Part shown: positions 18,577 through 44,825 of the stretch, piece after piece
Numbering within the stretch: the stretch's first letter is position 1
Layout of the letters: every line of letters starts with the position of its first letter
From: Candidatus Poribacteria bacterium
Lineage (GTDB): Bacteria; Poribacteria; WGA-4E; WGA-3G
Length of the DNA stretch: 62,389 nucleotides
Direction of reading: 5' to 3'
NCBI GenBank assembly: GCA_009839975.1
Contig: VXOP01000361.1
Coordinates: forward strand, 1-62,389
Translations under genes and position numbers: made by a program
The notes under the pieces: model-generated
Told to the model about the DNA's origin: nothing
The model's input: the letters and a program-made list of their open reading frames with translations, nothing else
The model's database searches: none

Positions 18577-18630
18577 CCCTCCATCTTCTTACAGACAATT
18601 AAGGGAAAGATTTTGATTTTTTCTCTTGTT

Positions 18631-22101: not shown

Positions 22102-22261
22102 CGGTTCATACCTCAAAGTAAAACATTGTGTAACGCGTCTTTTTTCATTATATCACAAATGGACAAGTTGAAGTAAAGCTGAATGATTTTTACCATCCAA
22201 CTTTTTCCCGGTACCACATTCTATCCTCCTTGAGTATATATGCGTTATTTTATTAATCATC

Positions 22262-22968: not shown

Positions 22969-23201
22969 CATTTGTTCTTCTTATACCCTATTATCATGTC
23001 GGTTTCGCAAGTTCTACCCGACCTACAATTACAGTGAAATTCAGAAGTATATGCACAATTTCGGTCCAATGGATATAAACCATTATACTGAAAGGTTTAA
23101 TAATGTCTATTTATGTGTTTTGATTTTTGATGTGTTATCAAGAATCTGAAGTACAATCTTGTCCTGATATAAAACTGAGCAAATACTCAGGAGGTATTGA
23201 A

Positions 23202-26200
23202 ATGATTATTGCAAATATGTTCAGATGGAAATATACGTTAATATCAATTAGTGCGGTGTTTATACTTTACATAATTCATTTTAGTAATATAGCATATTCA
23301 ATTCCAGTAAGTGAACGGACAGAGCAAGTTCAGGAAGAAATTAAAAGAGCCTTAGATATAGATGAGGTTTCACAAATAACTGATGCACATCTTGCACGTA
23401 TTACTGCGTTAAATCTTAAAAATAAAGATATTCACAGTTTAAAATCTGGTGATTTTGAAGGTTTATCAGGATTAAAAAACTTGAATTTATTTGGCAACAA
23501 TCTTGATGTATTACCTAATTCAATATTCTCTGGATTAAAGTCTTTAACAGTGCTTCGGTTAGGTGGTAACAATACATATCCACTTCAGACACCCATAAAA
23601 TTGGAAAAAATATCGGATGGCGAGTTTAGAGCGGTTGTTATAACAGCTGCGCCCTTTGATATAGAATTAGATATTAATATAGTGAATGGAACTACGAAGA
23701 ATTCAAAGATTACCGTAAACAAAGGTAGCACCTATAGTTCTATTTTGAATGTTGAGCGAATATATGGAACAACAGATATAGTAACTGCAGAAATAAAAGT
23801 ATTACCGCAATTACCAAAGTTCCATTATGGATATATATTTGTAAAATCTAATAGAAGCCCCATCAACGTTATTGATAAAGTTGAAGTAATTATTGATAAA
23901 ACGCCAGACGACAACGTGGTAGATGAAGTTATAGAAGAAGATGAAGTACAGGATGATAGTTTAGATAATCAAGAACCAGAAATAGAAACATCAGAAGTCC
24001 AAAATGATATAACCAATAATCCTCCCTATTTTGGGACCAACAATATATTTGTTCGATACATAGAAGAAAATGTTATAGCAGGCATCAATGTTGGTATGCC
24101 GATTACTGCCATAGATCAAGATCCGAATGATACATTGATATATAGTCTTGATGGATTAGATCAAGAATCATTTAGTATTGATTCAAAAAGCGGTCAAATA
24201 CTAACCAAACTGCCGTTGGATTATGAAAGCAAAAATTTGTATATTGTCAGGGTAGTTGTTTCTGACTATAAGGATAAAAATTGGGTTTATGTTGTTATAA
24301 AACTCATAGATAAGAACGATGGCAGGACAAACTTTGTGGAAGATTTTTTAGATATAAATGAAAGAACGCCAGCAGTTCAAGATGCAATTATTAGTGCAAT
24401 TCCAAATATTGATAATGCAGAAAACATAACTGTTGACCATCTTGAATCTATTACTGAACTTAATTTACGCGGGGCAGGTATTACACAATTAAAATCAGGC
24501 GATTTTTCAGGTCTTCACGGATTAACGAATCTAAATCTATACGGAAATATGCTCAGGAGACTTCCCGAGGATATATTTAACGGATTGATCTCACTAAAAT
24601 CGTTGCGCCTGGGTAGGAATATATTTGATCCCTTGCCAATTCTTGTATCATTTCAGAAGATAGAGTTTGACAAATATCAAGTCGTAATACCAACTGGAGC
24701 ACCTTTTGATATAAATATGTTGGTTAACAATAATACTTCTATTGATACTGTCAGGATCAAAAAGGGCGATACAAGAAGTAACGTTTTCACTTCTAAAGGC
24801 ATTCCAAAAATTGAACAGTTACCAACATTACCTCGTAATCATTTCGGATATACTATATCACAATCTACAGTGTGTCATAGAAGTGAACAAGTTATAAAAG
24901 GAATTACAAATTCGTTAGGTCAACCTGATTGCCGACTTATAAGCGACCTTGATCTACTATTAATTAGAGATTTAGATCTTAGCGGTATGTCTATTGAATC
25001 ATTAAAGTCATTCGATTTTTCGGGATTATTAATGCTGAACCACATTGATCTGAGTAACAATAAACTATCTAAACTTCCGGAAGGTATATTTGATAAATTG
25101 ACCAGAATTCAATCACTTAACTTACATAATAATCGTTTCGATCCATTACCAATAACATTCTTATTGGAAAAAGTCGGTAAAGACCAAATAAAGATAACTA
25201 TACCCGTATGTGCTCCATCTGAAATGAATATACCAGTGAGCGTTAAGGTTGGCGAAATTGTAAGTAATAAATTTATAGTACAAATATCTACTGGCAATTA
25301 TGAAAGTGATCTCTATACAATAACCAGACCCGATGATACATTAGATTATATTTATGTGGATATTGTTGATCCTATTGATATACCTAATACACATAGTGGA
25401 TATACATTTATAGGAAATACGAATACACCCTTAGAAATTTTTGAACGCATAAATGTTGCCCCCGTTTTCGTTGAAGGTGAAAAGACAAATCGCAATATAG
25501 CAGAAAATACGGACTCAGGCGAAAATATTGGAATACCAATTACAGCTACGGATATAAACAACGATAAACTGAATTATACGATTACTGGACAAGATGCACA
25601 GTCCTTCAGTATTGATAATAGCAATGGACAGATCATAACAAAGTCTCCACTCGATTATGAGACAAAATCAGAATATTCTATAATAGTTAATGTGTCAGAT
25701 GGTATACTAACAACTAGCATAATTGTCGCTATAAAAATCGATGATGTATATGAAAATATATATCCAGTTTTTGTTGAAGGCGAAAATACAACGCGTAATA
25801 TAGCAGAAAATACGGATATAGGTATAGGTATTAATGCTATAAAGGCGACAGATGCTAATGAGAATGATACATTAGAGTACACGCTTAGCGGTACAGATGC
25901 TTCACGTTTCAAAATTGATAGTGCCTCCGGGCAATTGATAACAAATTCGCAACTTGATTTTGAAACAAAATCATCTTATTCAATTATTGTCCATGCATCA
26001 GATAATAACGGTGGCACAGATTCTATCACAGTTAAGATTATAGTAAACGATGTCAACGAAGCACCTGTATTTATATCAGATCTATCAACACGTATAACTA
26101 TAGACGAGAATATAACTACAAGAACAAATATCGGTAAATTCACTGCTACGGATGAAGACAAAGATGACATTCTAAAATGGACTATAACCGGTGAAGAGGC

Positions 26201-29200
26201 ACAATATTTCCACATCATATCTACTACAGGACAACTTCAAACAAAATCACCACTTGATTATGAAACAAAATCTTTATATACATTTGATGTAAACGTATAT
26301 GATAATCACGGTTTGAGTGATACCATTAGTGTTGATATTGAAATAAGTGATATTGATGAAAATACTGCACCTGAATTTATAGAAGGTGAAACCGTAAGTA
26401 GATATATAGCAGAAAATTCTAATGCCGGTATAGATATCGGGTCTCCAATTACAGCTCGTGACAGTGAACAAGACTCACTTGTCTATACCATCCAAGGCAC
26501 AGATGCAAATACATTTGATATTATTAGCACGACTGGTCAATTAAAAACAAAAGATTCTTTGGACTATGAATTTAAGAATTCTTATTCAGTCCAAGTCATT
26601 GTATCTGACGGTAAACTCACTGATACAATAACGGTTACAATATATATTAATGATGTTTTTGAGATTGTAGATATAGAACCTGATATACCCGAAACTACGC
26701 AACCTGATATACCCGAAACTACGCAACCTGATACATCCGAAAACACGCAACCTGATACACCCGAAAACACGCAACCTGATACATCCGAAAACACGCAACC
26801 TGATATACCTGAAACTATAGAACCACAAACACCTCAAAATAACGCACCATATTTTATTAGTGGTATTCCTACATCACGTTCTATAAATGAAAATGTTCCG
26901 ATAGGCACAAACATTGGCAACCCTATAACCGCTAAAGATGATGACGATGGTGACAAATTGACGTATAGTTTGATAAATTCAAGTGCTGCCCCTTTTGAAA
27001 TTGACGCTACATCAGGCCAAATTAAAACAAGCACAAATGTAGATCATGAAAACAAGAATTCATATACTATAACAGTTCAAGTTTCTGATAGTAAACTGAC
27101 AGATACTATAGCAATCACTATTAATATAATAGACGTAAACGAAGCACCTGTTTTCAATGCTGGTAATACTGCAACACGTTCAGTGTTAGCAAATACCGAT
27201 AGTATTACTAATATTGGAAGCGCATTTTCAGTATCGGATGACGATGGAGATGCACTCACATGGACATTAAGTGGTACAGATGCAAGTTCATTTAGTATTG
27301 ATGATAAAGGTCAACTGAAGACTAAAGATAATATCGATTATAGTTTAAAACAATCCTATGCTATAACAATCACAGTATCTGATGGCACCTTAACTGATAC
27401 GATTAAGGTTACGATAAACACTATAGATACAAATGAAGCACCTGTTTTTGCATCTGATACTACTACCCTTGAAATTGCTGAAAATACAGCATCAGGGGTT
27501 AACATAGGAAGCCCTATCACAGCAACGGATGCAGATAATGATACACTTACATATACACTCAGCGGAACAGATGCAGCCGCATTCAGTATTCAAAGCACAT
27601 CTGGACAAATAAAGACTAAAGAATCAACAGATCATGAGACGAAAGATACTTATGAAGTCATAATCACCGCATCAGATGGGAACAAATCAGACACTATCAC
27701 TGTTACCATTGAAATAAAAGATGTCAATGAAGCACCCGTTTTCACAGACAGTAGTGATATTACGCGTGAAGTAAATGAAAATACAGCACCCAATGAAGAT
27801 ATTGGTGATTCTATAGATATATCCGCAACAGATCCTGATGATGGTGATACACTGACGTGGACACTTGGAGGAACAGATGCAGCATCTTTTAATTCCGAAA
27901 TAGATTCTGATTCAGATACACTGCAATTAAAAACTGTATCGGCTCTTGATTATGAAACTAAAAATAGTTATTCATTGAAAATTATTGTATCAGATAGTGA
28001 TGGCTTAGAAGATGATATTTCTGTAACGATAAACATAAATGATGTATACGAAGCACCACCTAATAGCGCTCCTGTATTTACAGATGGTGCTAATACTGAA
28101 CGATCAATCGCTGAAAATACAGCATCAGGGGTTAACATAGGAAGCCCTATCACAGCAACTGATGCAAATAATGATACACTTACATGGACACTCAGAGGAA
28201 CAGATGCAGCCGCATTCAGTATTCAAAGCACATCTGGACAAATAAAAACAAAAGCAGCATTGGATTTTGAAACCAAAACTACATATACTATAATTGTTAA
28301 TGTTAGTGATGAAAAGGGTGGAACTGATAGTATTACTGTCACTATCAAAATTACCGATGTCAATGAAAATCCAGGATTTTTAGAAGAAAGTGTTACATAT
28401 TCTCTAAATGAAAATACGGCATCAGGTAAAAATATAGGTAAACCATCTGTGAACAATCCTAATAAGGATAACTTGATTTTTGAACTTAAGGGTGATGGAT
28501 CTAATGCTTTTGATATTGTTTCTAACACAGGTCAATTACGAACTAAAGATATATTCAATTACGAATCAGATCCTACAAGCTATTCTTTTCAAATTGACTG
28601 TAAATTAGGTGAAAATACTATTGATACAATTGATATTACTGTAAATATTAGAGATATCAATGAACCTCCAAAATTTAATATTAATGCTAAAGGTCTATCA
28701 AAAGAGTTTACTATTAGTGAAAAATTATTGTTCCCGACTATTAGTAACACTATTGCCATAATAGATGCTACAGATGAGGATGCTATAGATAATGAAGAAT
28801 ATACAAGACATAATATGCGTTATTCTAACAGATTGAAATATAAGATTGCAAGTAGCAATAGCAATCTTTTTACAATTGAACAAAGCACCATTACCTTTAC
28901 AGGAATAAACGTGTCAAAGACTGGTGGCCAGTTATATTTATATTACTCATCAGATGAAGAAAAATATGATACTGAAAAAACATACAAACTTAAAATTATT
29001 GTAGAAGATAGCAAGTTAGCAAGAGATTCTATTGATATTACAGTAAAAGTGAAAAAAAATAGTCCGCCATCATTTGTGGATGGTGATTCTACCACACGCG
29101 AAGTAAGCGCAACTGCAAATCTAGGTACTTTTGTAGGCGAACCTATATCTGCAACAGATCCTGATGGAGATAAACTTGAATATAAATTTGTTTATTTAAT

Positions 29201-29717
29201 TCCTGGAACTCAACATGAAGGTTTAGCTCCCAATATTCATAACTTTACAATAAACTCTGAAACAGGACAAATATCACTTGTAACAAATAAAGTTCTTCAA
29301 AGCTATGTAGTTACAGTTAATGTAACAGATGGAAAAGCGCGTGATAGAATTGACGTTACAATTAATCCTATTAGTTCATCTAATGCACCTTCTAATAATA
29401 TAGAACCGTTTAGACTTATTCCTACATCAACAGAATTATTACCGAATTATCCGAATCCGTTTAATCCTGAAACTTGGATACCGTATCAATTATCAGAAAG
29501 TTCTCATGTAGAATTAACTATATATGATATTAAAGGGGCTATCATAAGACATATAGATATTGGTCATAAAATGCCAGGCACTTATATAGATAAAATAAAT
29601 GCTATTCATTGGGATGGCTCTAATAATCGAGGTGAAAGAATTTCATCGGGAATTTATTTCTATACACTGAAGGCAGGTAAATATACTAAATCAAGGTCTT
29701 TATTGATATTGAAATAA
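23202..29717 (+). CDS. Giant (2,171 aa) surface adhesin: three LRR modules, about 14 cadherin repeats, a Pro/Thr-rich tandem linker and a T9SS/FlgD-Ig-like C-terminal sorting domain
   Basis: AGGAGG RBS before the ATG at 23202. N-terminal TM/signal sequence. LRR units (L..L.L..N.L..LP..IF.GL). Repeated cadherin signatures (NAPVF...I.EN...G..IG..I.A.D.D.D.LTY.L.G.DA..F.ID..SGQI.T...LD.E......I.V.D). C-terminal LLPNYPNPFNPETWIPY...GIYFY. Confidence 0.85.
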   Translation: MIIANMFRWKYTLISISAVFILYIIHFSNIAYSIPVSERTEQVQEEIKRALDIDEVSQITDAHLARITALNLKNKDIHSLKSGDFEGLSGLKNLNLFGNNLDVLPNSIFSGLKSLTVLRLGGNNTYPLQTPIKLEKISDGEFRAVVITAAPFDIELDINIVNGTTKNSKITVNKGSTYSSILNVERIYGTTDIVTAEIKVLPQLPKFHYGYIFVKSNRSPINVIDKVEVIIDKTPDDNVVDEVIEEDEVQDDSLDNQEPEIETSEVQNDITNNPPYFGTNNIFVRYIEENVIAGINVGMPITAIDQDPNDTLIYSLDGLDQESFSIDSKSGQILTKLPLDYESKNLYIVRVVVSDYKDKNWVYVVIKLIDKNDGRTNFVEDFLDINERTPAVQDAIISAIPNIDNAENITVDHLESITELNLRGAGITQLKSGDFSGLHGLTNLNLYGNMLRRLPEDIFNGLISLKSLRLGRNIFDPLPILVSFQKIEFDKYQVVIPTGAPFDINMLVNNNTSIDTVRIKKGDTRSNVFTSKGIPKIEQLPTLPRNHFGYTISQSTVCHRSEQVIKGITNSLGQPDCRLISDLDLLLIRDLDLSGMSIESLKSFDFSGLLMLNHIDLSNNKLSKLPEGIFDKLTRIQSLNLHNNRFDPLPITFLLEKVGKDQIKITIPVCAPSEMNIPVSVKVGEIVSNKFIVQISTGNYESDLYTITRPDDTLDYIYVDIVDPIDIPNTHSGYTFIGNTNTPLEIFERINVAPVFVEGEKTNRNIAENTDSGENIGIPITATDINNDKLNYTITGQDAQSFSIDNSNGQIITKSPLDYETKSEYSIIVNVSDGILTTSIIVAIKIDDVYENIYPVFVEGENTTRNIAENTDIGIGINAIKATDANENDTLEYTLSGTDASRFKIDSASGQLITNSQLDFETKSSYSIIVHASDNNGGTDSITVKIIVNDVNEAPVFISDLSTRITIDENITTRTNIGKFTATDEDKDDILKWTITGEEAQYFHIISTTGQLQTKSPLDYETKSLYTFDVNVYDNHGLSDTISVDIEISDIDENTAPEFIEGETVSRYIAENSNAGIDIGSPITARDSEQDSLVYTIQGTDANTFDIISTTGQLKTKDSLDYEFKNSYSVQVIVSDGKLTDTITVTIYINDVFEIVDIEPDIPETTQPDIPETTQPDTSENTQPDTPENTQPDTSENTQPDIPETIEPQTPQNNAPYFISGIPTSRSINENVPIGTNIGNPITAKDDDDGDKLTYSLINSSAAPFEIDATSGQIKTSTNVDHENKNSYTITVQVSDSKLTDTIAITINIIDVNEAPVFNAGNTATRSVLANTDSITNIGSAFSVSDDDGDALTWTLSGTDASSFSIDDKGQLKTKDNIDYSLKQSYAITITVSDGTLTDTIKVTINTIDTNEAPVFASDTTTLEIAENTASGVNIGSPITATDADNDTLTYTLSGTDAAAFSIQSTSGQIKTKESTDHETKDTYEVIITASDGNKSDTITVTIEIKDVNEAPVFTDSSDITREVNENTAPNEDIGDSIDISATDPDDGDTLTWTLGGTDAASFNSEIDSDSDTLQLKTVSALDYETKNSYSLKIIVSDSDGLEDDISVTININDVYEAPPNSAPVFTDGANTERSIAENTASGVNIGSPITATDANNDTLTWTLRGTDAAAFSIQSTSGQIKTKAALDFETKTTYTIIVNVSDEKGGTDSITVTIKITDVNENPGFLEESVTYSLNENTASGKNIGKPSVNNPNKDNLIFELKGDGSNAFDIVSNTGQLRTKDIFNYESDPTSYSFQIDCKLGENTIDTIDITVNIRDINEPPKFNINAKGLSKEFTISEKLLFPTISNTIAIIDATDEDAIDNEEYTRHNMRYSNRLKYKIASSNSNLFTIEQSTITFTGINVSKTGGQLYLYYSSDEEKYDTEKTYKLKIIVEDSKLARDSIDITVKVKKNSPPSFVDGDSTTREVSATANLGTFVGEPISATDPDGDKLEYKFVYLIPGTQHEGLAPNIHNFTINSETGQISLVTNKVLQSYVVTVNVTDGKARDRIDVTINPISSSNAPSNNIEPFRLIPTSTELLPNYPNPFNPETWIPYQLSESSHVELTIYDIKGAIIRHIDIGHKMPGTYIDKINAIHWDGSNNRGERISSGIYFYTLKAGKYTKSRSLLILK
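26679..26822 (+). repeat. Six tandem 24-bp repeats inside the adhesin gene (PDIPETTQ/PDTSENTQ units)
   Basis: CCTGATATACCCGAAACTACGCAA-type unit repeated six times in frame. Confidence 0.95.
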
Positions 29718-29756: not shown

Positions 29757-29854
29757 CAAACTATTCTTCAAAGTTATCAAGGATCAAATTATCAATGGCA
29801 TCTCACATGCATCTATACGATTTTCGTCTGACATTATATCTGACCAGACCCCGC

Positions 29855-30196
29855 CTATTTACGCTTCAGTCCATATATTGCTGCAGCTTCGGTATTGAAA
29901 TGTTCAAACATATTGATGAGCCGACTGCGGACGATCAGGTTTTTGATATTTTTCCCAACATGAATAATGGCAATCCGTCCATTTTTTGAGCGTGCCAGTT
30001 TGTAGGCACTCATGAGCGTGCCTAGTCCGCCACTATCCATTTTCTGCACGCGCTGAAAATCAATAAGAATAAGAGGTTTGTTCGCAGTATCTATCTGTTT
30101 TGTCATGACAGTTCGCATGTCCCGCACGGCTGTTCCTATAATGTTTCCAGTCGGTTGTAGGATAGCGATGTTGCCTTTTTTTCGTAGTGTTACCAT
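29855..30196 (-). CDS. STAS-domain protein (SpoIIAA/RsbV-like anti-sigma-factor antagonist)
   Basis: 113 aa. ...ILIDFQRVQKMDSGGLGTLM... matches the STAS DS.GLG region. Paralog at 41601..41945. Confidence 0.75.
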   Translation of the reverse strand: MVTLRKKGNIAILQPTGNIIGTAVRDMRTVMTKQIDTANKPLILIDFQRVQKMDSGGLGTLMSAYKLARSKNGRIAIIHVGKNIKNLIVRSRLINMFEHFNTEAAAIYGLKRK

Positions 30197-30272
30197 GTGT
30201 TCACCTCATATAAAGGGTTGATTGTTTGACAGAAACGCATATCGCTTATGTATCATGTATATTAGACAAGAC

Positions 30273-30360
30273 AAAATATCTTTAGCTTTTTTTCACGGGT
30301 AAAAAAAGTGTGTATCTGATAAAATATATGAACGTTTCTAAAAAAGAACTAAAGATTTTT
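30273..30360. promoter_or_regulatory. Conserved inverted-repeat operator in the STAS/sigma divergent intergenic region (pair 1)
   Basis: AAAATATCTTTAG (30273-30285) and CTAAAGATTTTT (30349-30360) flank a CTTTTTTT-CACGGG-TAAAAAAAG hairpin. Same layout as 41496-41553. Confidence 0.45.
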
Positions 30361-30443
30361 CTATAAAACACATATATTAAATATAGACAGTTTGTTTCAT
30401 ATGAACCGAACTGCAGATTCTAAGTCGTGTACGGGAGGTATAT

Positions 30444-31100
30444 ATGAATTGTCCAAGTGGTGGTCCCAGCCAACGCGGTAAATGTCCGTTTTATATTGTC
30501 CCGGATGATCCGCTCTCTGCGGATGCGTCTGTGAAACATTGTGTAGATGCTATAACAGCGAAAAATGATAGGTTACAAGGACTGAAAGAAGATTTTTATC
30601 AGATAGCGTATCTGGCACTATTAGAGGCTTTACCAGAATATAATCCATCTCATCCGAGTGGTGCAAGTCTGATTACGTTTGTGAAATCACGTGTCTGCAC
30701 GCGTCTCTGGCATGAACGTTCCAAAGCGTTATCACATATTCCATTTCCCACAGAGCCTTCTGATTGTTCCGGTTGCACAGGTGTGTGTTGTAGAAACCCG
30801 TTAGTTGCGGAGCTCACGCGTCAAGCGTGTTCACAAGAATCTATGGAAGACGAAGTTATTCGTCGACTTGAAGCGGAAAATCTCCGCAGATACTATCCAT
30901 TGCTGACTCGCAGGTTAAGCGAGAAAGAAAAAAGTATTCTGCAGCTAAAGTTTTTTGAAGAAAAAAGCGGTGTAGAGATTTCCAAGACACTGGGGGTCTC
31001 CGAGGGGCGTGTGAGTCAACTGACACAAACTGCCCTGGAAAAAGTCGGTAAAGCGTATTTTCTGCTATCGTTTGCTAAGAATCGCAACCCCTATATTTAG
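30444..31100 (+). CDS. Sigma-70-family RNA polymerase sigma factor with an unusual N-terminal GKCPFY motif
   Basis: Region 2-like YQIAYLALLEALPEYNP...FVKSRV. Region 4 HTH: LSEKEKSILQLKFFEEKSGVEISKTLGVSEGRVSQL. Paralog at 40782..41435. Confidence 0.75.
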   Translation: MNCPSGGPSQRGKCPFYIVPDDPLSADASVKHCVDAITAKNDRLQGLKEDFYQIAYLALLEALPEYNPSHPSGASLITFVKSRVCTRLWHERSKALSHIPFPTEPSDCSGCTGVCCRNPLVAELTRQACSQESMEDEVIRRLEAENLRRYYPLLTRRLSEKEKSILQLKFFEEKSGVEISKTLGVSEGRVSQLTQTALEKVGKAYFLLSFAKNRNPYI

Positions 31101-31133
31101 GCGCAGGCGGTGTGCCTAACTACGCAACGAACA

Positions 31134-31158
31134 TAGACCGATATAAAATATCAGTCTA
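31134..31158 (-). other. Candidate lox-like site 3 (inverted relative to sites 1 and 2)
   Basis: The reverse complement reads TAGACTGATA-TTTTA-TATCGGTCTA with the same flanks. Confidence 0.45.
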
Positions 31159-31325
31159 AATCAGAGAAAAAAATCTGACTCTTTTCCTTAAGTGTTGTCC
31201 TTTTAAACCGTTACCGCAACCGTTGTGGTTGTCCTGAACAGAAAAGAATCAAAAAATGCAAATCGTCCGCGTCTTGGGTCCTAATTAATTTTGAATTAGC
31301 TGCGCGTTACGCGAAATCGGGTTGT

Positions 31326-32438
31326 TTACGAACCCTTACTACCATTGCCTCCAACCTCCCTCTCCAAAACATCGTGCGCGGTATGGGTAACGCCCTGTGC
31401 GGTATGGGTAACGCTGTGTGTGCTATCGGTAACACCTAATTCCCGTTTAATTTGATGGTAATACTCATAAGCTTTTTCAAAAGCATCCCGCATAGACTTC
31501 GGCATCTGTGTGTAGCGCTCATGCTCCGATGTATTACGCCATATACCAAAACGCCGCGACTTTCTACGTTGAATCTGATTCGTTTCAACATTGACTCTCC
31601 ATAACTCGTTGAAGCTATAACGCCAATCACCATCCGCACGCATCTCCTTATCTTCAGGTGTCCGAACCTTCTTAACCTTCCGCTTGCGGAAAACAGGCTT
31701 CGGTTTCCCATCAGGTTTCGGATACAACTGATATACACCCGCCTCGTGCTTCTTGGACAAACGCTTAACTAAACCCGCTTTCGTGAGTTCTTTTATACAA
31801 TTAACGACCGTCTGCGGACTCATACCTACCCACTTGCGTATCTTGTCAATACTCAACGAATTCGTTATGCCCGTCTGCCAATCACTGCGATACTTCATGA
31901 CTATCCATACAACCGCAGACTTCCAACTTATATCACCAGAAAACAACCTTTCAAGAATACCGCCAACACCACGAGGTATCGCAAACTTCAACGGATTACC
32001 ATTTTTATCTGTCGGAACTTCGTCACGATCACAATTGTGATGCACAACCTCGTATATGCTACCCGTATTAATACCAACAGATAAAACAAATAACCAACCC
32101 TTGTCCTTCAAATCGGATAGCCGCTCGCGGATATAACGAACAGATACATCGGTAAGTTCAGAAAGCAGACGCAAACCCGTCCGCCACGTCTTACCCGTAT
32201 CATAAGTGCTACGATAATTAAATACACACAGCAATAAAAAATCAATAGAACACATCTCACCAGACAACAACTCCGATAACGCACTACTAAAACCATAAGG
32301 CAACTGCATCGTCGTCTCTACAGTTGGGTGAGGTATGTTGTATTCAGTCGACTCAACTAACTCAGGAGCCTCTAAATTATGACACGAAACAGGAACAGCA
32401 TTCAAAATGCCTAAACGCAAGGATGGATTTAGCACCAT
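31326..32438 (-). CDS. Rep-like double winged-helix protein (second complete copy)
   Basis: By my count it differs at 19 positions from the 12499..13665 translation. Confidence 0.6.
   Translation of the reverse strand: MVLNPSLRLGILNAVPVSCHNLEAPELVESTEYNIPHPTVETTMQLPYGFSSALSELLSGEMCSIDFLLLCVFNYRSTYDTGKTWRTGLRLLSELTDVSVRYIRERLSDLKDKGWLFVLSVGINTGSIYEVVHHNCDRDEVPTDKNGNPLKFAIPRGVGGILERLFSGDISWKSAVVWIVMKYRSDWQTGITNSLSIDKIRKWVGMSPQTVVNCIKELTKAGLVKRLSKKHEAGVYQLYPKPDGKPKPVFRKRKVKKVRTPEDKEMRADGDWRYSFNELWRVNVETNQIQRRKSRRFGIWRNTSEHERYTQMPKSMRDAFEKAYEYYHQIKRELGVTDSTHSVTHTAQGVTHTAHDVLEREVGGNGSKGS
31371..31433 (-). repeat. Three tandem 21-bp iteron-like repeats (copy C)
   Basis: Reverse complement of the GTTACC(C/G)ATA(C/G)CGCACA units. 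Confidence 0.8.
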
Positions 32439-32621
32439 CTTTCTTCTCCTATAATAAAAAAAATAGAATACACACACGCTTTTGCTATGCAACCCCTTGA
32501 CCTAACCCAGTCGGTAGGTGCGATTTCCCTATCGCACCAAACACTATCGGAAAATACAGGGATTCGTAAAAAAATGCATTTTTTACTTGACATATCCAAA
32601 ATTTTGTGGTATCCTACTTTT

Positions 32622-32666
32622 ATCAGTGTGGGGGTGTTGTGAAAGCAACCCCCCTTTCAATTTTTA
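32622..32666 (+). ncRNA. Predicted countertranscript RNA, copy C
   Basis: TTGACA (32587-32592), 17-nt spacer, TATCCT (32610-32615). Hairpin GGGGGTGTTG..CAACCCCCC (32630-32654), then TTTCAATTTTT. Confidence 0.45.
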
Positions 32667-36779: not shown

Positions 36780-36976
36780 ATCATGCGAGCCTCACGGCAT
36801 GCCTTCGCTTCCTTTTCATATTCAGGGGTATCTAACTTTTTGCCGTAGGTCTGAATATAGTATATATACAGATATTCCGCCTTGGCATATTCCTGTGTGT
36901 CCGTATCATCTGTTGGAAAGGGTGGTATCCATTCTGCGCTCCAGTGTCCACGTTCTTCTTGCTGCAAGGCAAGCAA
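36776..36976 (-). CDS. Small hypothetical protein (66 aa)
   Basis: First gene of an apparent minus-strand operon. Overlaps the next ORF by 4 nt. Confidence 0.35.
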   Translation of the reverse strand: MLALQQEERGHWSAEWIPPFPTDDTDTQEYAKAEYLYIYYIQTYGKKLDTPEYEKEAKACREARMI

Positions 36977-37021
36977 AACTCCGTTTACACGGTTCTCCTT
37001 TATTATCTGAAAAGAGGCAAA

Positions 37022-37690
37022 ATGAAAATGGGAAAACTACAGAGATCACAAGATGGCACGGTGTCCATCCAAACAAAAAAATATTAGCGTCGGCCGTCGC
37101 GCCGAACACACTCCGAGCATATAGTAGATGCTTGGTCGACCTATCTGCATGGTTGGGTGACAGGTCTATTGATGATGTGCTGTTGGCTGAATACCTTACA
37201 CACCTGCATGAAACTGGGAAGTCTCCGAGCACAATTGGACAGGTCGTAGCGGCTGTGAAATGGCGTGCGAAGTATTCTGGCAAATCCGATTTAGAACTCA
37301 CGCTGACAAACGGGTATCGGTGAGTCTCTTTATGTGTGTGATGACACAAGGAAGATTTTGAATAAATACGTAGCGGATGCAAAGATAACCGATGCTGTTT
37401 TTCGTAGGAGACGCCGCGGCGATCATATCCAAAAGCAAAGACTCACGTGTCAATCTGCGCGACAGATAATCACAAAGCGGGCAGAAGCAGCAGGTATTGA
37501 CGGCTTCATATCGGGTCACTCGCTCCGTGTGGGGTTCTGCGGTGTCTCTTGCACAAGCAGGTGCATCGGTTGTTGATATGCAGGTAGCGGGTAGATGGAA
37601 ATCATCACAGATGCCTGCACACTATGCAAAGGCAGAGTTGGCAGAACGGGGGCAATTGCGAGATATAAAGATGGGAAAAATGGATAACCT
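37022..37690 (+). pseudogene. Decayed Cre-like tyrosine recombinase
   Basis: Pieces in three frames match 19811..20728: MGKLQRSQDGTVSIQTKK / KKILASAV..LAEYLTHLHETGKSP..LTLTNG / ESLYV..GHSLRVG / SAVSLAQAGASVVDMQVAGRWKSSQMPAHYAKAELAERG. About 85 central codons are missing. Confidence 0.85.
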
Positions 37691-38104: not shown

Positions 38105-38419
38105 TTGACACTTTTTGCACAATTTTGTATAATGCTTTTTAGACATTAGAAATTCACTGAATTCCGAATTGTGTGGATTATGTCGGAGGGTGCTTAATAT
38201 ATGCACCGACAGTGGTATCAACACTGCCGATGCGTAGCACTGACGTAACAGAACTACGACAGAGCTGGTATCTATCATATCAAATAACGGCTTTTATGTC
38301 ATGCTATAATAGAGACCAGCAACCTCTACAGAGATTGCAATTATATCTCGTTTACCTGCCAATTTCTGTAGTCTGTCTAAACAACTAACCTGCTTCAATG
38401 ATATAATTGGAGGCAAAAG
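38105..38419 (+). ncRNA. Consensus promoter plus ~280-nt conserved leader RNA (copy 2)
   Basis: TTGACA (38105-38110), 17-nt spacer, TATAAT (38128-38133). The transcribed sequence GCTTTTTAGACATTAGAAATTCAC...ATTATGTCGGAGG... matches the minus-strand 12142-region element. Confidence 0.5.
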
Positions 38420-38617
38420 ATGAGACTGGACTACAAAGTTATTCTCATAACCCTTATTATTTTCTCTGCGATTATCGGTGTTCTCATACTCGGCACAGAT
38501 GCAACACCAGATGAGACACCCGTAGAAATACATCAATGTGGCCCAGGCGGAACATGCACTGGGTGTAATGCGGATATATCTAAACCCTCTCCCAAACTGC
38601 CCTATTCGCTGGAGTGA
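38420..38617 (+). CDS. Small membrane protein with a Cys-rich tail
   Basis: GGAGG RBS. TM helix, then HQCGPGGTCTGCN. Confidence 0.45.
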   Translation: MRLDYKVILITLIIFSAIIGVLILGTDATPDETPVEIHQCGPGGTCTGCNADISKPSPKLPYSLE

Positions 38618-38666
38618 GCGAAGTAAAGGGATACCTCTCATAATAATTGAGAAGGAGTAAAATCTC

Positions 38667-39296
38667 ATGAGAAACAAAGTTTATTGGGGACTCGGTGTCC
38701 TCATTGTGCTATTCATAGGTGCTTTTGTGCTTGTGATGGTAAACGAGTATGCAGAAAACGAGCAGCTTGAAGCCGATGCCAAAAAAGCACAAGAACAGGC
38801 AGATCGGAACAAGCAACAAAAGCATGTGACAGATAACCCGCCAACGGATAACCACTCGGACAAAATACCGGTGGCACACCCTGAAAACAATACGCAACAG
38901 GAAGATCAAATTGCTGAACCGCCAACACCCGTTTCAGATGGTGAACTCAGTGAAATCTTGGAACACTTCATGCAAGTGAAAGCACCACCAGGAAGTAACC
39001 TTGAATCACTTCAAAATAGTATACGTATATCTGGTGATCCTCACCAGAGTATTAAGGATCACCCTGTCTATGAAGAATTTTACCAATTTATGATTGATTA
39101 TCCTGATTTTGATTACCAAACTGCAACGACTGAACTCAGACAAAAACGTTCTCGTATACTTCAAGAAATGACAGCAGCAATACGAGGACATGCAGCGGTA
39201 ATGAATGCAAGACAGGCAGCACTTAGAGAGGTAATTGAAGCTTCAACGCCTGAAATGATTCTGGAAGACTTTTCGGATAAAGGAGGGACAGAATAA
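38667..39296 (+). CDS. Membrane-anchored hypothetical protein
   Basis: GGAG RBS. The N-terminus MRNKVYWGLGVLIVLFIG resembles that of 42946..43968 (MKNKFYIGSIFIVLIL). Confidence 0.55.
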   Translation: MRNKVYWGLGVLIVLFIGAFVLVMVNEYAENEQLEADAKKAQEQADRNKQQKHVTDNPPTDNHSDKIPVAHPENNTQQEDQIAEPPTPVSDGELSEILEHFMQVKAPPGSNLESLQNSIRISGDPHQSIKDHPVYEEFYQFMIDYPDFDYQTATTELRQKRSRILQEMTAAIRGHAAVMNARQAALREVIEASTPEMILEDFSDKGGTE

Positions 39297-39667
39297 TGTT
39301 AATCAAGAGAACGGTCTTCACTATTCTTACGTTGTTCATAACGTTGTTGCAGACAACAGCGTTCTCGGAGACGCTAACGAATAGTAAAGGTGTAACGTGG
39401 ACTATCAATGACATTGGTGACGCGCAAAATCATTGGAACACACACGAAGGTTATTTGAATGCAGCTAACGGGAAGATGACACCGTTAACATTGGATAGAA
39501 CAATCATTGAATATGCGTATAATCAGAACTATGCTGCTCTGCAGAAGGCAGCGTCAGTGGGTGTTATGGCAGCGGGTTTTCGACAATATGGCATTGGTCT
39601 TGCAAGTTCACTGTTAACCTTACTTAATCAGAATAATCTTGAGGAGATTACTCGACAAGACGTTTAA
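39296..39667 (+). CDS. Small secreted hypothetical protein
   Basis: Signal-peptide-like N-terminus. The start overlaps the upstream stop (TAATG). Confidence 0.5.
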   Translation: MLIKRTVFTILTLFITLLQTTAFSETLTNSKGVTWTINDIGDAQNHWNTHEGYLNAANGKMTPLTLDRTIIEYAYNQNYAALQKAASVGVMAAGFRQYGIGLASSLLTLLNQNNLEEITRQDV

Positions 39668-39710
39668 ACATCATGATCCTCCTTTACAGGACTAATTGTA
39701 CCGCGTTTAT

Positions 39711-39990
39711 GAAACCTTATTGCGAATTAACACTTACTTTTTGAGTCGGAAGTATCCGAACCAGTTGAATCTTTTCTTCGGTTTGGGTAGCATCAACATT
39801 TTTGTCTTTTCTTGTTCTGTCTTTAACATAGACAAGAGTTGTTTCTCTCGGTCTTTTGCGTCAGCGAGTTCAGCTTTAGTATCCGAGAGTTGTTTTTGCA
39901 TCAACTCAATCACGACGTGGGGTTGTCCGGTGTTATGCTGATGTCCATTCTCTGATATTTCTGGAGTCTCAGGTTGTCTGCGATTGTCTT
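39711..39990. repeat. ~280-bp direct repeat, copy R1
   Basis: Matches 44543-44825. The ORF track shows near-identical plus-strand artefact ORFs at 39696..39941 and 44420..44734. Confidence 0.85.
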
Positions 39991-40781: not shown

Positions 40782-41435
40782 TTATGTGTTTTGATACGGA
40801 TTTCCGTTTTCTGTATCGAGTGCGTTTAGATATGCTTTACCGAGTTTTGCTAAAGCGGATTGTGTGAGTCGTGTTACGTATCCTTCTGTGATGTTGAGTT
40901 TTTCGGCGATTTGTTTGCCTTTACAAGCATCAAAGAACTTCATTTCAATTACCTGTCTTTCATTTTCTGAGAGTTTGTTCAGAAGTTTTGGTAAGTTATT
41001 GCGTAAGAACTCAACTTCGATTTTCTGTATTACATTATCAGCCATATTTTCTATGACACAAGCTTGTGCGAACAATCCGGTGACTAAGGGATTGTTTGGG
41101 GCATCGCTGTCTTCCTCATAACATTCTTGATGTGAGTAAGGTATCTCTCTAAGTATTTTTGTTCTTTCCTGCCATAATCGTGTGCATACCTTTGCTTTTA
41201 TGAAGGTTGTGTACGATGCTCCGCTTGGGTGATGTGGGTTATACTTCGGTGTTTCTTCAATGATTGTTAGGAATGCGATCTGTCGCAAATCTTCATTGTG
41301 AGAATGCATCTGTGTGCTTTTTCCACAGGCACAGGAGACACATTGATGCACCGACTTTTCTGCGGAGAGTGGGTTATCTGGTATGACATAGAAAGGACAT
41401 TTACCTCTGTTATTGGGACCTTGTAGTTGTGTCAT
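40782..41435 (-). CDS. Sigma-70-family sigma factor, paralog of 30444..31100
   Basis: Shares RGKCPFY(I/V)(V/I)PD.PLSA, NP.HPSGAS..TF.K..VCTRLW.ER.K and the region 4 HTH. Confidence 0.75.
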   Translation of the reverse strand: MTQLQGPNNRGKCPFYVIPDNPLSAEKSVHQCVSCACGKSTQMHSHNEDLRQIAFLTIIEETPKYNPHHPSGASYTTFIKAKVCTRLWQERTKILREIPYSHQECYEEDSDAPNNPLVTGLFAQACVIENMADNVIQKIEVEFLRNNLPKLLNKLSENERQVIEMKFFDACKGKQIAEKLNITEGYVTRLTQSALAKLGKAYLNALDTENGNPYQNT

Positions 41436-41495
41436 AGTTTGCCTCCAGTGACATGCGCGTTACATGTCGGTTTGTCTATTATATCATTTCTATTT

Positions 41496-41553
41496 GAAAA
41501 TCTTTACTAATTTTTTTCTACGGGCGTTTATAAAAAAAATAGTAAAGATTTTT
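41496..41553. promoter_or_regulatory. Conserved inverted-repeat operator in the sigma/STAS divergent intergenic region (pair 2)
   Basis: GAAAATCTTTACTA (41496-41509) and TAGTAAAGATTTTT (41540-41553) flank ATTTTTTT-CTACGGGCG..-AAAAAAAT. Confidence 0.45.
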
Positions 41554-41600
41554 ATTTTTGTGTGATATATAACGTAAAATGCTATTAGTGAGGTGTATTT

Positions 41601-41945
41601 ATGGACACGAGAGTTCGTTTTCAAGATGGCGTTGTTATCGTTGAACCTGTCAGTCGTCTGATAGGTGCGTCTATTGTTGAGTTGCGTGATACGCTCTATA
41701 GCGAAATAGGTCGTCACACATCTCCTCACATTCTTTTTGATTTCCATCGCACGCGTCGTATAGATAGTGGGGGTCTTGGTGTATTGCTGAATGCTCTTGC
41801 TTTGGTGAAAAAGCGCGGTGGCAGTCTTGGTGTGATGAATTTGTCGAAGATAAAGAGTTTGCTGATGCAGGGTCATCTTCTGCGGTGTTTTGAACATTAT
41901 GATGAAGAACATACCGCGGTATCTTGTCTGTTGCATGCTGCCTAA
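41601..41945 (+). CDS. STAS-domain anti-sigma-antagonist-like protein, paralog of 29855..30196
   Basis: ...ILFDFHRTRRIDSGGLGVLL... Confidence 0.75.
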   Translation: MDTRVRFQDGVVIVEPVSRLIGASIVELRDTLYSEIGRHTSPHILFDFHRTRRIDSGGLGVLLNALALVKKRGGSLGVMNLSKIKSLLMQGHLLRCFEHYDEEHTAVSCLLHAA

Positions 41946-41970: not shown

Positions 41971-41994
41971 TTGTGGTCTGTCAGATATAATGTT
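41971..41994 (+). promoter_or_regulatory. 24-nt motif identical to one upstream of the other CC1 gene (contains TATAAT)
   Basis: TTGTGGTCTGTCAGATATAATGTT at 41971-41994 equals the reverse complement of 11832-11855. Confidence 0.5.
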
Positions 41995-42053
41995 ATACGA
42001 AAATTGTATAGATGCATGTGAGATACCATTTACACATCAAAGGAGAAATAAAG

Positions 42054-42941
42054 ATGTTATCCATCCGTAATAAGAAGTTAGTCCTTTTTGCTATTACGCT
42101 GTTATGTATTACGACCGTTGTTTCTGCTGTAACTTGGAAGGAACTTTACGCTGCCTTAGATGCGTTTCTAAATGCTAAGGGTGTATGGGAAACAGTTGAA
42201 GGGCAAATAAAGAGTCTTGAAGATGAAACCGAGTCTCTTCAGGCAAAAATTGACCAAGAAAATGAAGATGAACAAAGTGACAACGCATTAATTCTTCACA
42301 ATATGTATATGTCCTCAGTGTATGAGAAAAAAGTTGAGGATATAAAGGAGGATTTGACTGAAGCGAAGACTGACCTGGAGAAAAAGGATTCAAGACTATC
42401 CTCTGCAATAAGTTCTTATGAATTCAGTAAAATTTATGAAAAGAAAGCCAAAAAAGCGTATGACAACTATGTAAGGATGTGTGACGATCCTCGTTATTGT
42501 CAACCAGATTGCTATTATTGTAATGAACATCAGAGATTATATAAAGCGTGGCAGGATTGGAAAAAGGAGAGAGAAGATGCCAAAAAGGAACGTGACGCTG
42601 CCTTCAAAGAATATGTTCCAGCTTATAATTTGGTAGAAGCTATTGAAAAGTGGTTGAACTGGAATGAGCAGGAGCATCGTAAATATAGGGGTTTAGTCAA
42701 GTATTGGGAAAAAGCACGCGATGTTCATGTTGAGAAATCGAAAAAGCTTCAGACGAAATTTGATGAGAAAAATGCCAAACTTACAGAGAGAAGGACAAGA
42801 AAGCTTGAATTACGCGCGGCAACTCCCAGCGTCAGAATATATATGAATAATATTCTGGCAGCGTGGAAACTCCCCGATTTTGATTACGATAAATATATTG
42901 AGAAGAACCCACCTCCAGAAATCATATTTGCAAAGGAGTAA
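42054..42941 (+). CDS. Membrane-anchored coiled-coil protein (CC1 position)
   Basis: AAGGAG RBS before the ATG at 42054. TM helix plus charged coiled-coil-like sequence. Confidence 0.65.
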   Translation: MLSIRNKKLVLFAITLLCITTVVSAVTWKELYAALDAFLNAKGVWETVEGQIKSLEDETESLQAKIDQENEDEQSDNALILHNMYMSSVYEKKVEDIKEDLTEAKTDLEKKDSRLSSAISSYEFSKIYEKKAKKAYDNYVRMCDDPRYCQPDCYYCNEHQRLYKAWQDWKKEREDAKKERDAAFKEYVPAYNLVEAIEKWLNWNEQEHRKYRGLVKYWEKARDVHVEKSKKLQTKFDEKNAKLTERRTRKLELRAATPSVRIYMNNILAAWKLPDFDYDKYIEKNPPPEIIFAKE

Positions 42942-42945
42942 ATCC

Positions 42946-43968
42946 ATGAAAAACAAGTTCTACATAGGCAGCATATTCATTGTTTTGATACTCGTATGTA
43001 TTTTTGTTTGGGCATATCAGAGACAGATCATACCGGCATTAGTTGTGAATGATGATTATTCTAAGAATGCCGTTTCTCAAAATGGGAAAGATACCCGATC
43101 TACTTTGGAAAAAGAGTTTCTGGAGATGTTGTCATCAATGGATATTGATTTTGAAAGCCTAAGTTTAGAGGATCAAGAAAAGTTGATGACACATTATCGG
43201 CAGTCGAAACAAATGACAAGTGAGGCATTTGACAAATACATTACGGAAGAAAACCAAAAGCTCCATAAACAAGTAACTGCATTTGACCAGTTGAATACAG
43301 AAGATAAAATAAGTTGGCTTATGGAAAATAGTTCGGGTGAATTTTCAAAATCACTTGAAGTTATACGTGAGTCCGAAAATCGTATTGCTGACTGGAATGC
43401 TTCCCGTCCACAAAGAGAGGCAGAAGCAGAAAAACGACGTTTGGAGACAGAAGCTGCAAATAAGTGGTTTGAAGAATGGAAACGCGAAACACGTGAACTC
43501 TTAAAAGAACTCGATCTGAAATTAAGATCACCGCGTTCCATACTTTTAGATGATAATGTTGATACCACCATATCGGAGGATTCATCAGAATCCGCAGCAG
43601 AAAACGCAGTTTCCACTTCCCAATCAATTGTTTTTGATTCTGTAGTTTCACTCTCTAAAGTCCAATCAAAATTGAAACCATTTCTTGTAGATTTAGATGA
43701 AAAATACTTTGATGTTGTCGTATCTCAAACGCTAACATCACAAGAGATAGATAGGTATTTTCCGATGGACTTGGATCGTGAGATGCTTCGTTCCCGGACT
43801 ACCGAGATGCAAAAGTTAGTCGTTTCTCAGGTTCGCAAGCTGGTGTCTGATGTCAAGGGGGCAACCGCAGAGCAAAAACGCTCACTCGCAAGGGAACTGG
43901 TGAAAAAAAACTTTGATAAGGATTTCGCAAAATCTATCTTATCAGAGTTAGAAAAAGAGATGGAATAA
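42946..43968 (+). CDS. Membrane-anchored coiled-coil protein (CC2 family)
   Basis: AAGGAG RBS before the ATG at 42946. C-terminus homologous to that of 9698..10933. Confidence 0.7.
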   Translation: MKNKFYIGSIFIVLILVCIFVWAYQRQIIPALVVNDDYSKNAVSQNGKDTRSTLEKEFLEMLSSMDIDFESLSLEDQEKLMTHYRQSKQMTSEAFDKYITEENQKLHKQVTAFDQLNTEDKISWLMENSSGEFSKSLEVIRESENRIADWNASRPQREAEAEKRRLETEAANKWFEEWKRETRELLKELDLKLRSPRSILLDDNVDTTISEDSSESAAENAVSTSQSIVFDSVVSLSKVQSKLKPFLVDLDEKYFDVVVSQTLTSQEIDRYFPMDLDREMLRSRTTEMQKLVVSQVRKLVSDVKGATAEQKRSLARELVKKNFDKDFAKSILSELEKEME

Positions 43969-44037: not shown

Positions 44038-44542
44038 CTCTCTTTATACCCAATCTAAACCTTTCCCTACGCAATTCCATCGGTCAGAAGCACACATCCC
44101 ATCGCACTTATACTGATCCGACACCAGATGCTGACTGCCAAACGATAATAGACAACAACATCTTCAGACCCCTCGGCTGGCGAACCGTAGTCAAGCAACC
44201 GCAGTATGAACTGACTGGCACGCTCACCGGTATATCCCCACAAGCATTGATACTTGACACACATTCAAATCAGCAGTTCTCTTTACAGATAGGTGAGAAG
44301 ATCGAGCAAGCAACTCTACACACAATAGAACCGAAGCGGGTTATACTCACACACACAACAGACAAGACAACAGTATTGACACGCTCTCCCATATTTCCGC
44401 GATAATCGCAACACAAAGGATGCACACAATGCCCTACACCGCATTCTTTGCAAACGCCCTACCTAAACACCAGACAGAAAAACAAAACAGACACCCCCCT
44501 ATAAACAGGCAACGGACACCAACACGGATATTGATGTCCTCT

Positions 44543-44825
44543 GAAACATTATTGCGTCTCCGAACTTACTTTTTGAGTCGGAAGTATCCGAGCCAGTTGA
44601 ATCTTTTCTTCGGTTTGTGTAGCATCAACATTTTCGTCTTTTCTTGTTCTGTCTTTAACATAGACAAGAGTTGTCTCTCTCGGTCTTTAGCATCAGCCCA
44701 GTTCAGATTTAGTGTCCGAGAGTTGTTTTTGTAGCAACTCAATCACGATCTGCGGTTGTCCGGTGTTATGCTGATGTCCATTCTCCGATATTTTTGGAGT
44801 CGCATTTTGTCTACGCTTGTCTTGC
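44543..44825 (-). pseudogene. Direct-repeat copy R2: 3' remnant of the 39734..40186 gene with a 1-nt insertion
   Basis: Minus-strand translation PKISENGHQHNTGQPQIVIELLQKQLSDTKSELG stops where copy R1 continues. The 5' part of the gene is absent. Confidence 0.75.

Follow-up and report, generated by a model that had tools for sequence, protein, structure and literature searches.

The question raised by this 62,389-nucleotide (nt) stretch of DNA (the window; contig VXOP01000361.1 of assembly GCA_009839975.1), which belongs to a Candidatus Poribacteria genome from a sponge metagenome, is what kind of RNA is made at two similar loci, one near 12 kb on the minus strand (c12) and one near 38 kb on the plus strand (c38), where a consensus promoter is followed by a long noncoding leader and then by an operon for membrane-anchored proteins. 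Both copies fall into one family of ~260-nt structured RNAs, found in Candidatus Poribacteria, that had not been described before. We tentatively read each copy as an mRNA 5' leader that acts in cis as a translational riboregulator of the membrane-protein operon behind it, a reading to which we give somewhat less than even weight; as modeled, the RNA would work like a translational riboswitch or riboregulator, yet it fits no known class.

The original prediction, made from the letters of the window, placed perfect TTGACA-17-TATAAT promoters at 38105-38133 (+) and 12177-12149 (-), and this is exactly where they lie. Two such sites with 12 of 12 matches occur in the window, against 0.01 expected, and a 40-nt pattern of promoter plus start matches both leader loci and nowhere else in the window. 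The two copies are 80.5% identical across 128 nt, from ~45 nt 5' of the -35 box to the motif ...ATTATGTCGGAGG (also written ...AUUAUGUCGGAGG). Past this stretch the copies share only islands, such as GCGTAGC...TAACAGRACTAYGACAGRGCTGGT, TTTACCTGCCAA, and GTCTGTC, in keeping with the prediction. Also borne out are the leader lengths of ~280 nt (38140 to the ATG at 38420) and ~390 nt (12142 to the ATG at 11753), the membrane anchors of the operon products, seen as N-terminal hydrophobic helices in proteins downstream of both leaders, and the lack of conservation of the open reading frame (ORF) at ATGTCGGAG, which runs for 36 codons in c12 but for 5 in c38. The helix that had been suspected to covary (GCTGGT/ACCAGC in the 38-kb copy) is real and longer than first described (GCUGGUUUUCAU/AUGAAAACCGGC in the 12-kb copy versus GCUGGUAUCUAU/AUAGAGACCAGC in the 38-kb copy; P5a in the nomenclature used below). 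Fold z-scores against shuffled sequences were -3.4 for the 38-kb leader and -7.3 for the 12-kb leader. The chimeric 5' end of c12, the multicopy family across Poribacteria, the operon linkage, and the complementarity of the 3' end to the translation start region, all described below, were not part of that prediction.

The two window copies are not simple duplicates, their cores being only 60% identical. At the 5' end of c12 lies a module, the promoter with the first hairpin (12140-12106), that also occurs in c38; a complete core follows it and brings a P1 of its own, giving the 12-kb copy two P1-type hairpins; because this shared promoter-plus-P1 module precedes the complete core, the promoter-proximal part looks recently duplicated and the remainder does not.

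Further members of the family were reached through relatives of the 65-amino-acid (aa) and 264-aa products encoded behind the two leaders, whose contigs (L-numbers below) were searched for leaders with nhmmer and a covariance model (R1). Seven further distinct full-length homologs were recovered from Candidatus Poribacteria of sponge metagenomes, giving nine full-length copies (Table 1), and L012 contains two additional copies that lack their 5' ends. In pairwise comparison the nine leaders are 52 to 80% identical, with the exception of L028/L029 (97%). Multiple copies per genome are found not only in the window but also in assembly GCA_009842115.1 (L006 and L019) and in the CAZURU01 genome (L010 and L030), and contigs of four other metagenomes hold many more diverged copies; within the window, model R1 found no full copy beyond c12 and c38. 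Exact-pattern scans gave one true homolog in genomes (L010), one chance match and no true homolog in Joint Genome Institute (JGI) metagenomes, and, with two leader motifs, only chance matches inside coding sequence in viral contigs. In each of the nine homologs, a near-consensus sigma-70 promoter precedes P1 by a short, constant distance (12/12 matches in three, 11/12 in one, and 9 to 10/12 in the remainder), and the transcript is therefore expected to begin 1 to 5 nt before this first helix.

The family lies outside the classes that could be searched. A cmscan of the whole window against Rfam 15 (4,227 models, including riboswitches, T-box, ribozymes, 6S, tmRNA, and Poribacteria-1) gave no match at the gathering score, so that Rfam 15 assigns neither copy to any family; at E ≤ 10 the two window leaders gave only chance-level matches (E > 1) to unrelated short families, and the leaders of L010, L018, L023, and L012 gave no match. 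A literature search found nothing on this RNA or on Poribacteria RNA motifs.

The consensus fold of ~260 nt begins with the 5' hairpin P1, followed by P2 to P5 in a junction that P7 closes, then by P6 and a near-invariant tail, GGUCUGUC (helix sequences in Table 1); c38 is the most diverged member, having lost P2 and retained a reduced P3. Across the nine copies, 89.5% of the pair cells are standard pairs in a MAFFT alignment and 90.4% in a model-fitted alignment, whereas only 32 to 45% are paired in either alignment when the 3' partner is slid by 1 to 3 columns. Of 75 pairs, 23 (MAFFT) or 28 (model fitted) are changed on both sides, compared with 11 ± 2.1 or 11.4 ± 2.3 in column shuffles, none of 500 of which reached the observed value in either alignment, and with 3 to 8 or 2 to 7 in the slid controls. 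Compensatory changes occur in every major helix, with several each in P1a, P4, P5a, P7, and P6. P1a appears as GGUGU/ACACC, GACAU/AUGUC, GACGU/ACGUC, and GAUGU/ACAUC; the inner 4 bp of P4 appear as CAUA/UAUG, CGUA/UACG, CAUU/AAUG, and CGUU/AACG, Watson-Crick every time; P5a is AUUGG/CCAGU in L030 and UCUAU/AUAGA in c38; and in c38, P7 is AGG/CCU and P6 is CUACAGA/UCUGUAG, compensatory relative to the CAAAGGA/UCCUUUG of the other copies. Outside the core, the outer stem of P8 covaries as well (UAAGA/UCUUA versus AAUGA/UCAUU in L027), and the only two strain differences in c38, at 38263 and 38288, are both at unpaired positions. An aptamer-like conserved fold with covariation, as in riboswitches as a general class, is thus present, with 23 to 28 compensatory pairs of 75 and 0/500 shuffles as good. 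Since the compensatory changes are found in other Poribacteria genomes, the similarity of the window copies is not merely promoter-proximal identity left by recent duplication, and the conserved structured leader or noncoding RNA (ncRNA) that had originally been suggested is supported, with its consensus promoters, at least one covarying helix, and a position outside known classes.

These comparisons also bear on two rival explanations. The loci could be a repeated DNA element, such as a miniature inverted-repeat transposable element (MITE) or a recombination remnant with an outward promoter, as their multicopy and mosaic nature, the truncated copies in L012, the tail-only modules described below, and the direct repeats of the rep-gene 5' region that flank the 12-kb copy would allow. 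However, RNA helices are kept by compensatory changes at 52 to 80% identity and G-U pairs are conserved (the first pair of P3, for instance, in 7/9 copies), which indicates constraint at the RNA level; the orientation relative to the genes is constant, and there are no conserved terminal inverted repeats of the kind expected of a MITE or insertion sequence remnant, an 8-bp TTTAGACA/TGTCTAAA pair being present in the 38-kb copy only and TAGAC falling in the -10 box in L018, L023, and L027. We regard a DNA element as highly improbable. A leader peptide translated from an upstream ORF at ATGCAC (30 codons in the 12-kb copy and L010) is barely credible: GGAGG or AAGG does lie 8 to 11 nt 5' of ATGCAC in three copies, and the 12-kb and L010 peptides agree at 16/30 residues, but there is no ATG there in L018, L023, L028, L029, and L030, the 38-kb copy has UUCAC and encodes an unrelated 15-residue peptide, 2-nt insertions shift the frame in L023 and L027, and the region folds into the covarying P1 to P3. 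No ORF is conserved over the leader family, and a leader-peptide attenuator was set aside since no conserved short ORF with start codon and ribosome-binding site (RBS) was found. Two smaller candidates were also considered: a pseudoknot, UGACAG/CUGUCA, is possible, both of its sides being invariant, and the TATAAT within the tail GUCAGAUAUAAUG was set aside as a second promoter because it has no acceptable -35 box.

The evidence that points toward translation comes from the 3' end of the core. In 8/9 copies, the 3' strand of P6 and the tail are complementary to the downstream translation start region. Within each of the five 264-aa-family leaders, no other segment pairs as well with the Shine-Dalgarno (SD) region CCCAAAGGAG as does the P6 3' strand CUCCUUUGUGG; the predicted duplexes of the SD window with this strand reach -15.9 to -25.8 kcal/mol (-15.9 kcal/mol in c12), with at most 3% of shuffled windows as good. 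The SD-paired state is the minimum free energy (MFE) state in these leaders, a forced P6 lying 1.1 to 8.9 kcal/mol higher, and in the partition function 6.7 to 11 of the 11 anti-SD nucleotides sit on the SD; in c12 the SD is paired in both MFE and ensemble. The P6 5' strand CCCAAAGGA is itself a copy of the RBS in this family. The SD helix is lengthened to 14 bp in L028/L029 by GGGAUAU:GUAUCCC, and in L030 a different RBS, CACAAAAGGAGAC, still matches GUCUCCUUUGUG, together with GUCUCC:GGAGAC and GUG:CAC; such lineage-specific extension argues for selection on the pairing. In the three leaders of the 65-68-aa family, including c38, P6 has covaried away from the SD-like sequence and the SD lies in a local hairpin; here, the P6 3' end and tail, UGUAGUCUGUCU, are complementary to codons 2 to 6 of the ORF, AGACUGGACUACA, in a duplex of about -15 kcal/mol (-15.5 kcal/mol in c38, codons at 38423-38435) that 0/300 shuffles reach.

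Under the riboregulator reading, transcription would start at the strong sigma-70 promoter and the RNA would fold from its first nucleotides, and translation initiation would be controlled in cis by mutually exclusive pairing. The P6 3' strand and tail would occlude the start region, namely, the SD before the 264-aa family and codons 2 to 6 before the 65-68-aa family, and the P6 5' strand, mimicking the target, could keep the inhibitory strand within the folded core. Where the core is stabilized, with P7 stacked on P6, the start region would be free and the gene translated; a ligand or protein, tertiary structure, or cotranscriptional folding could provide the stabilization. Without it, the long-range helix would form and the RBS would be blocked, which is the default state according to thermodynamic folding. 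We speculate further that the core might be a new ligand- or protein-sensing RNA class, confined to sponge-symbiotic Poribacteria, that switches on multicopy membrane-anchored coiled-coil operons in response to a possibly host-derived signal, or else a new large ncRNA with its own job; we consider this extension unlikely.

Several observations weigh against the riboregulator reading. The L010 leader lacks complementarity to the downstream translation start region, and the complementarities of the others amount to about three independent observations. The exclusive pairing is a prediction only (SD versus P6 in the five 264-aa leaders, tail versus ORF start in the three 65-68-aa leaders, and none in L010), and switching is predicted by thermodynamic folding alone. 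Conservation of the tail extends to cases in which its partner differs and to sites without the core, and part of it must therefore have another cause. The leader is dispensable for the 65-68-aa gene, whose homologs in L013, L016, L020, and L026 have none and in L012 only the 3' domain, and the downstream proteins give no hint of a sensed signal. Moreover, the nine sequences all come from one phylum and are related to each other, and the strand test is weak, with only 44 G-U cells versus 25 A-C cells.

The tie between the core and the genes behind it differs by gene type, being strict for the 264-aa/411-aa operon and only sporadic for the 65-68-aa gene: the leader is present at 5/5 orthologous 264-aa/411-aa loci examined (51 to 100% protein identity) but at only three of ~8 loci of the 65-68-aa gene examined, plus the 3'-domain remnant in L012. 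Comparison of the downstream proteins with Pfam, NCBIfam, PADLOC, and PDB sequences gave no family assignment and at most generic coiled-coil matches; the AlphaFold model of the 264-aa protein has a transmembrane helix and a long helical bundle (predicted local distance difference test score [pLDDT], 86), for which Foldseek likewise returned only generic coiled-coil matches. Some large motifs first taken for leaders turned out to be independent ncRNAs, and an ncRNA gene that acts in trans or in a ribonucleoprotein and merely reads through into the downstream genes is the main alternative, although we find it somewhat unlikely. The same core stands before genes of at least three unrelated kinds (264-aa, 65-68-aa, and that of L010), the 65-68-aa genes own a proximal promoter-like site and also exist without the core, the RNA begins at the transcription start site, the 5' end of c38 can pair with the tail (UUAGACA/UGUCUAA) and close the molecule, and there are many diverged copies per metagenome. 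Set against this, the core is always oriented toward the gene, is strictly kept with the 264-aa operon, shows lineage-specific complementarity to the downstream start region, and is not followed by a sense-strand terminator.

No sense-strand intrinsic terminator was found between core and ORF in the six leaders scanned, which makes transcription attenuation and a terminated small RNA unlikely. A T-box leader was rejected, there being no RF00230 match and no terminator/antiterminator and the downstream genes encoding membrane-anchored proteins. Processive antitermination by an RNA that modifies RNA polymerase, like the HK022 put RNAs or the EAR element, is very improbable. The position directly after the promoter would suit it, as would the way in which the two copies point outward from a region with many mobile-element genes (rep-like, integrase, helicase, and methylase), but the terminators that a put or EAR element would override are absent in or after the leaders scanned (sense strand; operon interiors were not covered), the operons are short (2 to 3 genes), the orthologous loci lie in ordinary chromosomal neighborhoods, and ~260 nt far exceeds put (~70 nt). 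A constitutive stabilizer or processing element of the 5' untranslated region (UTR), for example, a 5' stem-loop that protects against RNase E-type decay and involves no switching and no effector, would account for the P1 that starts 1 to 5 nt past the predicted start in 9/9 copies, for the strong promoters, for products that are probably abundant structural membrane proteins, and for a gene context without ligand-related genes. A single 5' hairpin would suffice for this, however, and the conserved P2-P7 junction, the RBS mimic, and the anti-SD strand exceed the need; we think it quite unlikely that stabilization is the function.

Among known systems, the riboregulator reading resembles translational riboswitches with an anti-SD/anti-anti-SD platform, such as the thiamine pyrophosphate (TPP) riboswitch of Escherichia coli thiM, in having a structured, covarying 5' leader, a strand predicted to pair either within the folded sensor or with the RBS, and no terminator. 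The Poribacteria leader differs in having no Rfam match, known ligand, or metabolic gene context, in its larger size (~260 nt with a five-helix junction), in the distance of 90 to 130 nt, with hairpins between, from anti-SD to SD, and in a target that changes with the gene family (SD versus first codons). The raiA motif RNA, an orphan large structured RNA upstream of genes, resembles it in being a few hundred nucleotides long and strongly covarying, with a narrow taxonomic range and orphan function, but the Poribacteria leader lacks an Rfam match and is explicitly complementary to the start region of the gene that it precedes. The put RNAs of HK022 share the structured RNA right after strong promoters and the two oppositely facing copies, whereas the Poribacteria leader is about four times larger, has no terminators to override, and also occurs in ordinary chromosomal loci. 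Stabilizers of the ompA type are stem-loops placed at the very 5' terminus of an mRNA, as is P1 before these membrane-protein genes, but the leader conserves far more structure than a protective hairpin needs. The Poribacteria-1 motif in Rfam is likewise a structured RNA reported for this phylum, and cmscan gave no match to it in the window or in six leaders.

Poribacteria are uncultivated and among the most characteristic sponge symbionts, and almost nothing is known of their gene regulation. A strongly covarying, multicopy leader that sits behind the best promoters of the region and ahead of conserved, envelope-associated operons of unassigned function is a concrete regulatory element, testable in a heterologous host, and it points to the 264-aa/411-aa operon as tightly regulated in these bacteria. 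If an effector exists, the leader would represent a new class of sensor RNA; if not, it would still be a clear RBS-mimic and anti-SD architecture redeployed before different genes.

Table 1. Features of the Poribacteria leader RNAs. Positions are those of the window unless a contig is named; consensus sequences refer to the family.
Feature	Position	Strand	Details
Sigma-70 promoter, c38	38105-38133	+	Perfect TTGACA-17-TATAAT; predicted start near 38140
Core RNA, 38-kb copy (c38)	38139-38380	+	Full length; R1 match 153.9 bits, E = 2.7e-47
P1 hairpin, c38	38142-38184	+	GACAU/AUGUC plus AAUUCAC/GUGGAUU
P4 hairpin, c38	38240-38262	+	CUG.CGUA ... UACG.CAG
P5 long hairpin, c38	38264-38320	+	GCUGGUAUCUAU ... 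AUAGAGACCAGC; helix spotted in the original prediction
P6 hairpin, c38	38326-38371	+	CUACAGA ... UCUGUAG; conserved ACCUGCCAA motif within
P6 3' end and near-invariant tail, c38	38368-38382	+	UGUAGUCUGUCUAAA
Gene-proximal region, c38	38378-38422	+	Second promoter-like site TAAACA-18-TATAAT with TG (38378-38407); UGCUUC:GAGGCA local hairpin; SD GGAGG 38409-38413; ATG 38420
Operon behind 38-kb copy	38420-39667	+	65-, 209-, and 123-aa products, each with N-terminal hydrophobic segment and without family match
Sigma-70 promoter, c12	12149-12177	-	Perfect consensus
Extra 5' P1-type hairpin, 12-kb leader	12106-12140	-	GACGU..AAUUCACG..CGUGAAUU..AUGUC; common to 38-kb copy
Core RNA, 12-kb copy (c12)	12105-11841	-	Full length; R1 match 281.3 bits
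P1, c12	12068-12102	-	
P7, c12	12063-12065 with 11911-11913	-	
P2, c12	12046-12057	-	
P3/P3a, c12	12002-12045	-	
P4, c12	11975-11997	-	
P5, c12	11916-11973	-	
P6, c12	11853-11910	-	
P6 5' strand, c12	11904-11912	-	CCCAAAGGA; identical to the true RBS (RBS mimic)
Anti-SD segment (P6 3' strand), c12	11850-11860	-	CUCCUUUGUGG
Tail, c12	11841-11849	-	
Core-to-ORF platform, c12	11751-11840	-	TCAGATATAATGT motif 11833-11845; P8 11794-11817; P9 11768-11785; SD region CCCAAAGGAG 11760-11769; ATG 11751-11753
Operon behind 12-kb copy	9698-11753	-	264-aa membrane-anchored coiled coil and 411-aa protein
Leader L010	L010:7367-7632		Full length
Leader L018	L018:1702-1962		Full length
Leader L023	L023:1702-1962		Full length
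Leader L027	L027:9614-9880		Full length; on 5.9-Mb contig
Leader L028	L028:9654-9910		Full length
Leader L029	L029:955-1211		Full length
Leader L030	L030:1427-1689		Full length
P1 consensus			Bipartite 5' hairpin; GGUGU..AAUGCACG / CGUGUAUU..ACACC
P7 consensus			Long-range helix closing the P2-P5 junction; GGC/GCC
P2 consensus			CCCC/GGGG
P3 consensus			GCGCGC/GCGCGU; encloses P3a
P4 consensus			CUG.CAUA/UAUG.CAG
P5 consensus			Long hairpin GCUGGUUUUCAU/AUGAAAACCAGC with inner stems
P6 consensus			Immediately after P7; CAAAGGA/UCCUUUG; inner stem involving UGCCAAC
Tail consensus			Near-invariant (U)GGUCUGUC
Tail-only module, no core	41971-42030	+	UGUGGUCUGUCAGAUAUAAUGU and UAUAC..GUAUA hairpin; after STAS gene, before distantly paralogous two-gene operon 42012-43968
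Second tail-only module	29794-29850	-	GGUCUGGUCAGAUAUAAUGU and hairpin; after the other STAS gene

Some further observations concern the regions next to the leaders. The TGATATAAT-GGAGGCA block in the gene-proximal region of c38 is also found in 65-68-aa homologs without a leader; in the form TGATATAAT-NGGAGGCA(A/C)AAGATGAGACTGG (38400-38422, and in L013, L016, L020, and L026) it precedes all 65-68-aa genes, leader or not. An extended -10-like TATAAT lies only 12 nt before the ATG, and a transcript from there would therefore be nearly leaderless. L016 and L020 have a different conserved upstream sequence with hairpins in common, which may be another leader type. In L028 (8379-9550) and L029 (1-875), the leader and 264-aa operon lie directly downstream of a split extracytoplasmic function (ECF)-type sigma factor gene and small ORFs, and this neighborhood may point to a link between the 264-aa operon type and alternative sigma factors.

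Sigma factor-like genes also accompany the tail-only modules of the window. At 29855-31100 and 40782-41945 lie divergent gene pairs, in each of which a 217/218-aa protein limited to sigma-70 region 4 is encoded alongside a 113/114-aa STAS (anti-sigma antagonist-like) protein. A tail-only module, GGUCUG(G)UCAGAUAUAAUGU and a hairpin, comes after each STAS gene. The window has three occurrences of the motif TCAGATATAATGT, where 0.14 would be expected. In the two-gene operon at 42012-43968, the C-terminal domain of the second gene product matches that of the 411-aa protein (E = 2e-8). The sigma/STAS pair and coiled-coil operon near 42 kb are bracketed by a ~280-nt direct repeat (39710-39990 and 44542-44823; 89 to 92% identity, 4.8 kb apart).

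The surroundings of the two copies are rich in repeats and mobile-element genes. A module encoding a 388-aa winged-helix/HTH_36 protein, which looks like a replication initiator or regulator, is present at 12357-13749 and 31242-32634 (inverted, 96%) and in part at 8649-9097, and the entire 12-kb leader operon lies between direct repeats of the 5' part of this module (8715-9097 and 12257-12719), as if the operon cassette had been inserted or duplicated by recombination. An intact tyrosine-recombinase gene lies at 19811-20800 (-), and a degenerate inverted copy of it (37075-37651, +; piecewise identity, 73 to 83%), immediately 5' of the 38-kb promoter, is broken into short ORFs, such as a 174-aa ORF with an XerD-like N terminus (36799-37323); what adjoins the 38-kb leader thus looks like a decayed integrase. 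Between the leader copies, two DNA methyltransferase-HNH endonuclease fusions (14655-16241 and 20836-22116, both -) and a DnaB-like helicase (16468-17925, -) suggest an integrated mobile element or plasmid-like island. The window also holds a 2,196-aa ORF (23127-29717, +) made of ~300-nt repeats with cadherin-like or immunoglobulin-like periodicity and including a 24-nt tandem array (26653-26844), and a repeated element of 50 to 75 nt with the palindrome TTTAGACTGATAT...ATATCGGTCTA at 13818-13892, 18617-18692, and 31119-31172, where the rep-like modules end and close to the helicase region.

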